In this document: positions 34,583 through 35,002 of the stretch, piece after piece | How the letters are laid out: each line of letters starts with the position of its first letter | Position numbering within the stretch: position 1 is the stretch's first letter | Sequence record: NC_111505.1 | Length of the DNA stretch: 64,000 bases | Strand: one strand, 5' to 3' | DNA from: a phage | Position numbers and translations under genes: made by a program | The notes under the pieces: generated by a model | Seen by the model: only the letters and a program-made list of their open reading frames with translations | What the model was told of the DNA's origin: nothing | The model's database searches: none

Positions 34583-34624
34583 TCTCCACGGAGTGATTCG
34601 AACACTCGACCTCCTGATCCCAAA
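34583..34624 (-). pseudogene. 3' fragment of a split tRNA (anticodon loop UGG-like, T-arm, acceptor 3' strand, CCA encoded at 34580..34582)
   Basis: T-arm GAGTG-TTCGAAT-CACTC and acceptor strand CGTGGAG+A+CCA on the minus strand. The acceptor pairs with CTCCGCG at 34996..35002, but the 5' strand of the anticodon stem is missing. Confidence 0.4.
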
Positions 34625-34625
34625 G

Positions 34626-34967
34626 TTATGGTAGTTCTAAAAGTCCTGCATGTACGGCAGCATGACAATTTCTACAAAGTAATACACAGTTTTTAATTTC
34701 ATTATCAATTCTTTGCAGACTCCAACCTCTCATTTGAGCAAATTTAGAGTCTTTAATTTTAGGATCTAAATGGTGAATATCTAAAGAAACAATCCATTTA
34801 TCGAACCCACAATTGATACATTTACCGCCTAACTTGTCTACAGCATACTGTCGTTTCTGCCTCCCAAGATTCATGGTGTACTCATTGTGACATTTCCCAC
34901 ATATAGTCTTTTTATGACCATAAAATTTACATGGATCTTCTTCCCCACAACGACTGCATTTGTGCAT
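34626..34967 (-). CDS. HNH endonuclease inserted between the two halves of a tRNA gene
   Basis: 113-aa ORF with zinc-finger/HNH signature (CSRCG...CGKCH...DIHHLDP...CRNCHAAVH). Start codon abuts the tRNA 5' fragment; stop codon abuts the 3' fragment. Confidence 0.6.
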   Translation of the reverse strand: MHKCSRCGEEDPCKFYGHKKTICGKCHNEYTMNLGRQKRQYAVDKLGGKCINCGFDKWIVSLDIHHLDPKIKDSKFAQMRGWSLQRIDNEIKNCVLLCRNCHAAVHAGLLELP

Positions 34968-34976
34968 CTTTGATTA

Positions 34977-35002
34977 TCTCTACCAAGCTGAGCTACGCGG
35001 AG
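34977..35002 (-). pseudogene. 5' fragment of a split tRNA (acceptor 5' strand and D-arm)
   Basis: Minus-strand sequence CTCCGCG-TA-GCTCAGCTTGGTAGAG is a canonical tRNA 5' end, followed directly by the HNH start codon. Confidence 0.4.

Follow-up and report, generated by a model that had tools for sequence, protein, structure and literature searches.

Mobile endonuclease genes have been described in phage tRNA clusters, and the known cases closest to the locus reported here are F-TflIV (hegA) of phage T5 and SegB of phage T4. The tRNA gene region of T5 encodes the F-Tfl HNH endonucleases (Akulenko et al. 2004, as cited in PMC2330249 and PMC10644984). The open reading frames (ORFs) of F-TflI, F-TflII, and T5.069 are annotated as extending 14 to 24 nt into the next tRNA gene, and the tRNA overlapped by F-TflII is labelled a pseudogene. 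SegB is a GIY-YIG homing endonuclease encoded in the T4 tRNA cluster that cuts the tRNA genes of SegB-less relatives, recognizes a T-psi-C motif common to many tRNAs, and is inherited at close to 100% in mixed infections, flanking markers included (PMC2330249). Free-standing homing endonuclease genes (HEGs) can also split a gene, as mobE does in nrdA of Aeromonas phage Aeh1, where "genes in pieces" give a split reductase that, according to the title of the report, "retains function" (Friedrich et al. 2007 PNAS, cited in PMC3326045).

The DNA analyzed here (the window) is a 64,000-nt stretch of record NC_111505.1, from a Vequintavirus (rV5/FV3-like coliphage) infecting Escherichia coli, in which a gene for tRNA-Pro(UGG) is interrupted by an ORF annotated as an HNH endonuclease. 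Like F-TflIV and the other F-Tfl genes, this is a free-standing HNH gene in a tRNA cluster, on the tRNA strand. The HNH core of F-TflIV shares 32% identity with the window protein over 65 amino acids (E = 1e-6), and no similarity was detectable between the window protein and F-TflI or F-TflII. In T5, the genes are placed between tRNA genes or run over tRNA gene ends, whereas the window gene interrupts a tRNA gene in its middle, with 7 bp deleted and a remnant left on either side; the T5 enzymes have 193 to 227 amino acids, and the window protein, at 113, is about half that size. The extension of T5 ORFs into tRNA genes is an architecture common to environmental relatives of the window gene. 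SegB, a mobile endonuclease whose gene resides among phage tRNA genes, provides the working model, but it is a GIY-YIG rather than an HNH enzyme, its gene lies between tRNA genes and destroys none of them, and its motif is shared by many tRNAs, whereas the family of the window gene is tied specifically to tRNA-Pro(UGG). Aeh1 mobE resembles the window gene in that a free-standing HEG splits a gene without an intron or intein. The two Aeh1 reductase polypeptides reportedly reassemble, and that split gene keeps its function; the gene split in the window encodes an RNA and lacks 7 nt, and its function is almost certainly lost.

The locus is likely to represent a free-standing, intronless HEG of a tRNA-Pro-associated family that was inserted ectopically and destroyed a dispensable tRNA-Pro(UGG) gene, with homing as its presumed mode of spread. 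Read in this way, it adds one more case, of a fairly ordinary sort, to the mobile nuclease genes found in phage tRNA clusters. No report joining a disrupted tRNA, an HNH gene, and a phage was found in the literature searched, and the insertion was not mentioned in the Vequintavirus literature that was found.

Structure of the interrupted tRNA-Pro(UGG) gene

The minus strand of the window contains the first 25 nt (CTCCGCGTAGCTCAGCTTGGTAGAG) and the last 45 nt (TTTGGGATCAGGAGGTCGAGTGTTCGAATCACTCCGTGGAGACCA) of tRNA-Pro(UGG), separated by an insert (Table 1). Phage FV3 carries an intact 77-nt tRNA-Pro(UGG) gene at the same position (L001:1100-1176), and the 100% identity of both remnants to its ends indicates that their resemblance to a tRNA is not due to chance. 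The 5' remnant comprises the 5' strand of the acceptor stem, nt 8 and 9, the 5' strand of the D stem, the D loop, and all but one of the four bases in the 3' strand of the D stem. The 3' remnant comprises the anticodon loop (UGG), the 3' strand of the anticodon stem, the variable loop, the T arm, the 3' strand of the acceptor stem, A73, and the encoded CCA. Junctions were defined by alignment with FV3, navn, and 241Ecol014PP. The intact FV3 gene consists of 25 nt, the heptamer CGCCTGA, and 45 nt, and the window allele consists of 25 nt, 353 nt, and 45 nt. The lost heptamer (standard tRNA positions 25 to 31) spans the final base of the D stem, nt 26, and the anticodon stem's 5' strand. The insert comprises 10 nt of leader, in which a TAA lies in frame, followed by the HNH ORF and 1 nt past the stop codon. 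With these 7 bp replaced, a functional tRNA-Pro can almost certainly no longer be produced from the window locus.

TABLE 1 Features of the interrupted tRNA-Pro(UGG) locus and its upstream region (window coordinates)
Feature	Coordinates	Strand	Description
3' remnant of tRNA-Pro(UGG)	34580..34624	-	Identical to nt 33 to 77 of intact FV3 tRNA-Pro
Insert	34625..34977	-	353 nt, replaces CGCCTGA
HNH endonuclease ORF	34626..34967	-	113 amino acids; ORF list, Pfam, PHROG
5' remnant of tRNA-Pro(UGG)	34978..35002	-	Identical to nt 1 to 25 of intact FV3 tRNA-Pro
Upstream tRNA cluster	35014..35737	-	Arg, Tyr, Ser, 99-nt tRNA-like gene, Thr, Met; ARAGORN and Rfam
Candidate sigma-70-like promoter	35796..35824	-	TTGACA-17-TAATAT; consensus scan only

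These alignments bear on the initial annotation of the region, in which two tRNA ends had been placed on either side of an HNH ORF at 34626..34967. Both ends match the intact FV3 tRNA-Pro, and the coordinates given for the 3' piece (34624..34580, with the UGG anticodon loop, T arm, acceptor, and CCA) were correct. The 5' piece was properly recognized as a canonical tRNA 5' end but had been extended by one position, to 34977; it ends at 34978 and is 25 nt long. The absence of the 5' strand of the anticodon stem had likewise been noticed, but the description was incomplete, as one D-stem base and nt 26 are also missing.

The split tRNA gene and the HNH ORF are probably cotranscribed with the upstream tRNA cluster, judging from strand and spacing. 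The candidate promoter for such a tRNA/HNH transcript precedes the first tRNA of the cluster by about 60 nt, and no terminator-like sites were found between this candidate (35796..35824) and the HNH ORF.

An insert of this kind could be a group I or otherwise spliced intron that contains an endonuclease ORF and allows a mature tRNA-Pro to be made. Phage group I introns often carry HNH ORFs, and group I introns are known in the anticodon loops of bacterial tRNAs. In this phage group, the large terminase gene contains a group I intron with an I-HmuI-like HNH ORF, and its presence varies among relatives; in phage LL12, the terminase is annotated as an "intron-containing gene." The terminase intron and the tRNA-Pro insert are alike in that an HNH ORF interrupts a gene in the same genome and is variably present, but the former has a detectable group I ribozyme and intact exons, and the latter has neither. 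No match to Intron_gpI or any other ribozyme was found at E ≤ 10 across positions 34000 to 36500, whereas the terminase-gene intron of the same window, serving as a positive control, was recovered in the same kind of scan at 34.2 bits (E = 1e-6); this control is detected at the permissive setting and missed by Rfam at gathering thresholds across the whole window. Moreover, the insertion lies between the 3' strand of the D stem and position 32, outside the anticodon loop, and the part of the insert that is not ORF amounts to only 11 nt. Since seven exon nucleotides are absent, removal of the insert cannot restore the tRNA, and ligation of the flanks would yield none. Splicing of the insert as an intron is extremely improbable. 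The preference of the initial annotation for a gene disrupted by an endonuclease over an anticodon-loop intron is thus supported by the 353-nt insertion, the 7-nt deletion, and the lack of a group I signal.

Two further candidates for restoring a tRNA were considered and rejected. Sequences at the ends of the insert that might substitute for the lost anticodon-stem strand, ATAATCA (5') and CATAAC (3'), fail to pair with TCAGG, and the predicted fold pairs the anticodon-stem region differently, through G-U-rich pairs. A split tRNA or BHB-intron tRNA of the archaeal type would be left with an incomplete set of nucleotides (7 nt missing) in a phage of E. coli; bacteria are not known to have the archaeal splicing endonuclease. 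Neither ARAGORN nor the Rfam tRNA model called a tRNA across the two halves, and the sequence gives no support to a split or spliced functional tRNA assembled from them, which the initial annotation had left open.

The tRNA halves might instead have been co-opted, such that RNase P and 3' processing produce a tRNA-like, end-paired HNH mRNA, or such that a tRNA functions in pieces. An end-paired mRNA could stabilize or limit expression of the HNH protein. Both the minimum-energy and the centroid folds predicted for the 426-nt RNA contain the acceptor stem (7 bp) and the T arm, and acceptor/T-arm minihelices are among the substrates accepted by RNase P. In the SegB paper, a proposal is relayed that processing of the transcript in tRNA clusters reduces endonuclease expression (PMC2330249). 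However, the overall 426-nt fold was no better than that of shuffled sequence (z = -1.2), and the frequency of variable sites in the remnants (1 in 70 nt, compared to 4 in the 353-nt insert) indicates no conservation beyond hitchhiking. The 5' remnant showed zero variation across 7 insert-bearing and 8 insert-free genomes, and the 3' remnant has already changed in one insert-bearing lineage (G43 to A in phage A147). Lacking the 5' strand of the anticodon stem and a full D stem, the halves could not credibly form a decoding tRNA. Co-option of the halves is very unlikely.

The HNH ORF and its homologues

The ORF between the remnants matched Pfam PF01844 (HNH) at 23.8 bits (cutoff, 21.4) and PHROG 2255 ("HNH endonuclease") at E = 5e-27, which confirms its initial designation as an HNH endonuclease. 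The predicted protein contains an N-terminal CxxC...CxxC pair followed by an HNH core with a second CxxC...CxxC pair (DIHH...N...CRNCH...H). Alignment with homologues of 55 to 71% identity contained 49 invariant columns, among them every Cys and His of these motifs. All four substitutions in the ORF among insert-bearing phages were at synonymous third positions, a pattern comprising four sites in total. The domain matches, the invariant catalytic and zinc residues, and the synonymous substitutions suggest that the ORF encodes a working HNH protein. A search of solved structures gave no detectable relative of the 113-amino-acid protein. Its size is small for a sequence-specific homing enzyme.

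In about 50 contigs from uncultured phages, homologues with 51 to 71% identity immediately precede tRNA-Pro(UGG) genes. The HNH match stopped at the 5' end of a tRNA-Pro(UGG) on the same strand in 52 of 57 IMG/VR loci, and in 51 loci the ORF extended 10 to 16 nt into the tRNA-Pro gene; a homologous ORF in Salmonella phage Arash overlaps tRNA-Pro by 10 nt. The canonical environmental ORF is without a stop codon of its own and terminates in the D loop of the tRNA. Presence of the gene is variable across several backbones, with an HNH gene directly upstream in 27 and absent from 51 of the 78 environmental loci that have the same tRNA-Pro type. The usual site of the family is just upstream of an intact tRNA-Pro gene, and the site within the gene in the window is atypical, such that the target site cannot be deduced from the family. 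No leftover 5' tRNA fragment (target-site duplication) was found upstream of the environmental HNH genes apart from one weak match (14/18).

Short motifs at the junctions are shared with these environmental genes. At the left junction, the D arm of the tRNA contains TTGGTAGA, which also occurs in a hairpin (TGGTAGA-N9-TCTACCA) conserved upstream of the ATG in environmental homologues, and the right junction (TAAC/TTTGGG) resembles TAACTTGG, where environmental ORFs end. Upstream of the closest homologues (Arash and DIJ07P2), the sequences are different. As a post hoc reading of short motifs, this pattern is suggestive of microhomology-mediated entry.

A broader proposition is that the HNH lineage constitutes a homing system specific for tRNA-Pro(UGG), in which the tRNA gene serves simultaneously as target, part of the coding sequence, and RNA-processing signal; this is quite unlikely. 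If it were true, cutting by RNase P at the 5' end of the tRNA would strip the stop codon from the message of the environmental form, and in the window the remnants would pair into an acceptor/T-arm minihelix that makes the endonuclease mRNA tRNA-like and processed at both ends. Expression of a selfish gene would then be controlled by tRNA maturation. A by-product of the analysis that is perhaps more useful is the recognition of a compact HNH family (about 110 amino acids) at the 5' edge of tRNA-Pro(UGG) in many uncultured phages. Should its members prove site specific, the family would offer sequence-specific nucleases of unusually small size whose natural target can be predicted.

Distribution in Vequintavirus and proposed mobility

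Among 117 Vequintavirus records, about 104 contained an intact 77-nt tRNA-Pro gene, and 13 contained the insert (~11%, with ~89% lacking it). Comparison with relatives lacking the HNH gene, which had been suggested together with the initial annotation, showed the tRNA-Pro gene of those relatives to be intact. Presence of the insert was polymorphic at one position among genomes that were 96 to 99% identical in the flanks. Insert-bearing records matched a tRNA-Pro probe at a single site, with no similar second copy of tRNA-Pro. The insert was at least 99.2% identical across the 13 phage records and one metagenome contig; the junctions were identical in all of these, and the insertion therefore has a single origin. 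The allele was recovered from independent sources (Denmark, Poland, the United States, a cow isolate, and one metagenome) and is therefore not an assembly artifact. A search for older, diverged copies with the left-junction pattern gave no match in IMG/VR, and the right-junction pattern retrieved one metagenome contig, of the navn haplotype.

This distribution also bears on a possible role in packaging. The 113-amino-acid protein is encoded on the same strand as the large terminase gene and about 1.1 kb upstream of it, and it could be an HNH protein of the HK97 gp74 type that acts as a partner of the terminase rather than a mobile element. However, the sequenced Vequintaviruses without the ORF are viable phages, and the homologues are linked to tRNA-Pro genes and not to terminase genes. 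A packaging function is barely credible.

In seven insert-bearing genomes, 4 of 353 sites in the insert were variable (1.1%), compared to 4.9 to 11.1% in the flanks, making the insert 4 to 10 times less variable. Based on their flanks, the insert-bearing genomes formed no clade; they represented several haplotypes, each nearest to an insert-free genome. C7 (insert) and PDX (no insert) differed at 7 of about 4,000 sites on the left and at 7 of 1,130 on the right, the left flank of the window allele was nearest that of insert-free FV3, and navn (insert) was nearest naswa (no insert). The flanks of all compared genomes were extensively mosaic. No co-conversion tract was detected, with no flank single nucleotide polymorphism linked to the insert (maximum r2, 0.44) and nothing near the junctions; conversion tracts were either very short or wiped out by later recombination. 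The distribution is inconsistent with vertical descent alone. It fits homing, although general recombination could have given the same pattern.

Even with no nuclease activity, general homologous recombination between co-infecting Vequintaviruses could carry the insert from one haplotype to another. The insert may be a degenerating passenger that entered once by an illegitimate event, no longer homes or never homed in these phages, and was moved by ordinary homologous recombination or hitchhiking. The wide mosaicism of the flanks, which shows that general recombination is frequent, the presence of the insert in only ~11% of records, and its atypical position for the family are in keeping with such a history. 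In contrast, the ORF substitutions are exclusively synonymous (4/4) and all invariant family residues are retained, the diversity of the insert is far below that of the flanks, as expected of recent active spread, and homologues are polymorphic for presence at a fixed site beside tRNA-Pro on several backbones. A passive passenger is unlikely.

Under the preferred reading, that of a homing HEG, the endonuclease would make a site-specific cut in or next to the intact tRNA-Pro(UGG) gene of co-infecting phages that lack the HEG, and recombinational repair from the HEG-bearing genome would copy the HEG into the cut allele. Indirect support for such cutting comes solely from the linkage of the whole family to tRNA-Pro(UGG). 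Interruption of the target would make the HEG-bearing allele itself immune. The first arrival of the HEG in the Vequintavirus tRNA-Pro gene would have been an illegitimate event, possibly aided by microhomology on the left at TTGGTAGA (D arm) and on the right at TTGG (anticodon loop). The HNH ORF would be expressed from the tRNA-cluster transcript, and loss of tRNA-Pro would be tolerated because the host supplies the tRNA.

The locus provides a clean natural example of a HEG that has entered an RNA gene unprotected by an intron. The tRNA-Pro gene is dispensable to Vequintaviruses, since insert-bearing phages such as navn were isolated and propagated on E. coli K-12 MG1655. For annotation, two tRNA remnants should be recorded at this position, and no tRNA-Pro should be expected in insert-bearing phages. 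The pair formed by navn and naswa makes the homing hypothesis directly testable. Both phages came from Danish wastewater, and both were isolated on the same MG1655 host.

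Structure of the split tRNA-Pro locus

The initial annotation described a tRNA gene lying in two halves around an HNH ORF; the observation is real and homologous, not a chance resemblance, since both pieces align with the ends of the intact 77-nt tRNA-Pro of FV3, a relative without the HNH gene (L001:1100-1176; CTCCGCGTAGCTCAGCTTGGTAGAG-CGCCTGA-TTTGGGATCAGG...ACCA). Acceptor, D-arm, anticodon-loop (UGG), T-arm, and CCA features were all recognizable in the two flanking pieces. When aligned with FV3, the window, navn, and 241Ecol014PP retained the first 25 nt and last 45 nt unchanged, and a 353-nt insert replaced CGCCTGA, 7 nt that make up the final base of the D stem, nt 26, and the anticodon stem's 5' strand. 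The locus structure is an insertion plus a small deletion, which bears out the annotation's preference for disruption by an endonuclease gene over an intron. Ten nucleotides, including an in-frame TAA, separate the 5' remnant from the ORF, and the 3' remnant starts one base past the ORF stop codon. ARAGORN called six tRNA genes directly upstream of the feature and no tRNA-Pro beside them, and the Rfam tRNA model gave no match bridging the two pieces. A 1.6-kb query around the feature was ~98% identical to Vequintavirus (rV5/FV3-like) coliphages; 13 records covered the whole query, and the others covered 78% of it, with an annotated tRNA-Pro at the same spot.

Features of the tRNA-Pro locus and of the terminase gene in the window
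Feature	Coordinates	Strand	Remarks
tRNA-Pro 5' remnant, 25 nt	35002..34978	minus	reads CTCCGCGTAGCTCAGCTTGGTAGAG
HNH ORF, 113 codons	34967..34626	minus	from ORF list
tRNA-Pro 3' remnant, 45 nt	34624..34580	minus	reads TTTGGGATCAGGAGGTCGAGTGTTCGAATCACTCCGTGGAGACCA
Six upstream tRNA genes	35014..35737		ARAGORN
tRNA-like gene, 99 nt	35170..35268	minus	~26-nt extra segment in variable region; anticodon loop UUUUUAA
Large terminase, N-terminal part	33476..32727	minus	split gene
I-HmuI-like HNH_3 ORF	32613..31918	minus	between terminase parts
Large terminase, C-terminal part	31735..30950	minus	split gene

A spliced tRNA, in which the flanks would be joined, is contradicted because nucleotides that it requires are missing: the product would be a 70-nt RNA lacking one anticodon-stem strand. 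Only 11 nt of the insert are noncoding, and a permissive Rfam scan of 34000-36500 gave no match to a group I or other ribozyme at E ≤ 10. This negative result required a control, since a whole-window scan at default thresholds had returned tRNAs only. The permissive scan detected Intron_gpI in the window's terminase gene (34.2 bits, E = 1e-6), where ~990 nt separates the two coding parts and the group I intron matches (34.2 and 25.1 bits) are subthreshold; relatives' records annotate this gene as intron containing. The same genome thus carries a true intron-borne endonuclease in the terminase gene, visible to this type of scan, and an intron-less one in tRNA-Pro. Relatives vary at the terminase gene: some lack an insert, some have an intron without an ORF, and some have an insert whose ORF is annotated as endonuclease VII or recombination endonuclease.

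Distribution and haplotypes in Vequintavirus

A 157-nt probe (tRNA-Met end, intact tRNA-Pro, and downstream flank) was covered by 117 records, 13 of which were insert bearing and matched as two pieces. Each of these 13 had one probe-matching place and therefore no similar second tRNA-Pro copy. The resulting frequency of 11% is a biased estimate, since 10 of the 13 come from one GenBank set, MG0656xx (matches H1-H12 and H33-H36). Those records are titled "Campylobacter phage" (UNVERIFIED, host C. jejuni); they are Vequintaviruses ~98% identical to E. coli phages. A packaging role, as for the HNH protein HK97 gp74, is contradicted by the absence of the gene from ~89% of the genus.

The 13 records and one metagenome contig shared the insert at 99.2% identity or more. 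Junctions were identical in the contig and in the six of 13 records checked directly, which points to one insertion event behind all copies. Flanks (left, 4 kb; right, 1.1 kb) were compared among seven insert-bearing and eight insert-free genomes, and the insert-bearing genomes did not form a clade. C7 differed from its nearest insert-free genome, PDX, at 7/~4,000 left and 7/1,130 right sites; on the left flank, the window differed from its nearest insert-free genome, FV3 (nearest on this flank only), at 58 sites, navn from its nearest, naswa, at 43, and A147 from its nearest, C2 and phiWec193, at 58 and 65, respectively. In the 7 + 8 genomes, no flank SNP tracked the insert closely: r2 peaked at 0.44, with nothing near the junctions. 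Among insert-bearing genomes, variable sites made up 4/353 (1.1%) of the insert, 1/70 of the tRNA remnants, and 4.9 to 11.1% of the flanks. The sole remnant substitution, G43 to A in the 3' remnant of A147 (L068; TCAGG to TCAGA), would disrupt a base pair in the intact tRNA, and the remnants show no apparent constraint beyond hitchhiking with the insert.

Homing would predict a single young element distributed over many older backgrounds. Vigorous general recombination could yield the same haplotype picture. That the gene is a passive passenger, no longer active, is possible but unlikely.

Downstream of the split tRNA, a 1.1-kb stretch (33476..34580; an 89-amino-acid ORF and spanin genes) was 6 to 7% diverged from every other Vequintavirus compared, and the others (L065-L078) differed from each other by 0 to 3%, with phage WM similarly diverged from all others. 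The window's phage is mosaic in this interval, with no close match among database records.

The HNH protein and its family

The ORF matched the Pfam HNH model above the curated cutoff and PHROG 2255, "HNH endonuclease" (E = 5e-27). Together with four homologues (55 to 71% identity), it had 49 invariant columns, among them the HH...N...CxxCH...H core and, in a zinc-ribbon-like N-terminal segment, two CxxC pairs. No solved structure with a detectable sequence relationship to the protein was found. All four variable ORF sites in seven insert-bearing genomes were synonymous third positions, a small sample that points to a protein still under selection. A consensus scan found no promoter belonging to the ORF itself; upstream of the tRNA cluster is a sigma-70-like site, with no terminator-like site between it and the ORF, so expression from the tRNA transcript is likely. 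The remnants might make this message a substrate for tRNA-processing enzymes, and the SegB paper records a proposal that endonuclease expression is limited by processing within tRNA clusters (PMC2330249). A 7-bp acceptor stem and T arm form in both minimum-energy and centroid predicted structures. The fold overall is unremarkable (z = -1.2), and we regard such processing as very improbable.

DNA-level relatives of the insert adjoin tRNAs. In Salmonella phage Arash, the ORF and an intact tRNA-Pro share 10 nt (stop codon at tRNA positions 8 to 10); in a Phapecoctavirus, the ORF lies between tRNA-Pro and tRNA-Ile; in two jumbo Salmonella phages, it immediately precedes tRNA-Asn; and in a Yersinia jumbo phage, it follows pseudo-tRNA-Pro, tRNA-Pro, and tRNA-Val. 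More distant relatives (FelixO1-like, T5-like, and other phages) likewise overlap tRNA annotations. A profile scan identified 57 loci in uncultured-phage contigs (IMG/VR; 51 to 64% identity), in 52 of which the HNH tblastn match stops where a tRNA-Pro(UGG) on the same strand begins. Tracing each reading frame to its stop codon, 51 of these ORFs read 10 to 16 nt into tRNA-Pro (15 nt in 43), ending at the D-loop TAA. The overlapped tRNA-Pro genes show compensatory changes in acceptor and anticodon stems and are thus live genes. An independent search for the same tRNA-Pro type found 78 loci with enough upstream sequence; the HNH gene was present in 27 and absent in 51, which instead had a promoter-like TTGACA...TATAAT directly upstream, on several different backbones. 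By this comparison, the family has a fixed position relative to tRNA-Pro(UGG), at which it is present in some loci and absent in others. Together, these patterns are strong circumstantial evidence for site-specific mobility aimed at tRNA-Pro(UGG).

Environmental HNH ORFs (L008-L064 and L079-L158) have no stop codon of their own, and RNase P cleavage of the tRNA would strip the borrowed one from the message. A conserved hairpin, TGGTAGA-N9-TCTACCA, lies directly 5' of their ATG, with no Shine-Dalgarno sequence. In a 231-kb contig (L060:1500-1920), a decayed tRNA-Pro follows the HNH ORF, retaining the D-arm hairpin, TTTGGGA, and T arm with broken acceptor and anticodon stems; 335 nt upstream, the contig has an intact tRNA-Pro. 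In Yersinia phage fHe-Yen9-03 (L007:776-934), a pseudo-tRNA-Pro is annotated next to a good one. tRNA-Pro copies beside this endonuclease seem to decay readily where a second copy is available.

Proposed mobility and comparison with known systems

Given the established locus structure, HNH identity, single origin, spread over haplotypes, and family-wide linkage to tRNA-Pro, we propose that the enzyme would cut intact tRNA-Pro(UGG) DNA, or immediately adjacent DNA, in a co-infecting phage. Repair of the break from the insert-bearing genome would copy the gene across, and the insert-bearing allele would be protected because its site is interrupted. The midgene position, as opposed to the 5' edge, suggests that the insert arrived ectopically from another phage; enterobacterial phages hold the nearest relatives. 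Each junction falls at a motif containing TTGG. The left motif, TTGGTAGA, in the D arm, also occurs in the conserved pre-ATG hairpin of the environmental homologues, and the right junction (TAAC/TTTGGG), at the anticodon loop, resembles TAACTTGG, where environmental ORFs end; microhomology-mediated joining would fit both.

We take the feature to be one more of the free-standing homing endonuclease genes already known from phage tRNA clusters. The window protein is distantly related to F-TflIV (32% identity across the HNH core, E = 1e-6), and sequence comparison found no relationship to F-TflI or F-TflII. In Aeh1 nrdA, an endonuclease gene is reportedly inserted directly, intron-less, into a host gene. 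Particular to the present case are an RNA gene as target, a midgene position with an inactivating deletion, and a family specialized on tRNA-Pro(UGG). A literature search found no paper describing this insertion. It is of moderate interest, chiefly because the small HNH genes associated with tRNA-Pro form a well-defined family that lends itself to testing. That phage tRNA clusters harbor mobile endonuclease genes is established, e.g., by T4 SegB (GIY-YIG family), which cuts T2L tRNA genes and is inherited with an efficiency close to 100% (PMC2330249). The T5 tRNA region carries the HNH enzymes F-TflI, II, and IV (as cited in PMC2330249 and PMC10644984). According to the T5 annotation (L200, AY543070 24000-44000), the F-TflI ORF extends 14 nt into tRNA-Ser2, the F-TflII ORF 23 nt into the tRNA-Gln2 pseudogene, and the hypothetical ORF T5.069 24 nt into tRNA-Asn. 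Endonuclease genes of tRNA clusters seem in general to have ORF ends that run over the start of a tRNA.

For the 99-nt tRNA-like gene of the window's cluster, ARAGORN reported a 4-base anticodon. The gene was found in all three relatives scanned with ARAGORN and is annotated in several other records, inconsistently, as tRNA-OTHER or tRNA-Lys. In Escherichia phage 241Ecol014PP, a 127-nt insertion lies between tRNA-Arg and a diverged tRNA-Tyr no longer called by ARAGORN (L003:443-570), and this interval is a second variable site of the cluster. The Vequintavirus tRNA-Met and tRNA-Pro region shared 88 to 94% identity with T4-like phage tRNA genes (Tequatrovirus and relatives; matches H132-H158), which suggests that unrelated coliphage groups have exchanged tRNA genes.
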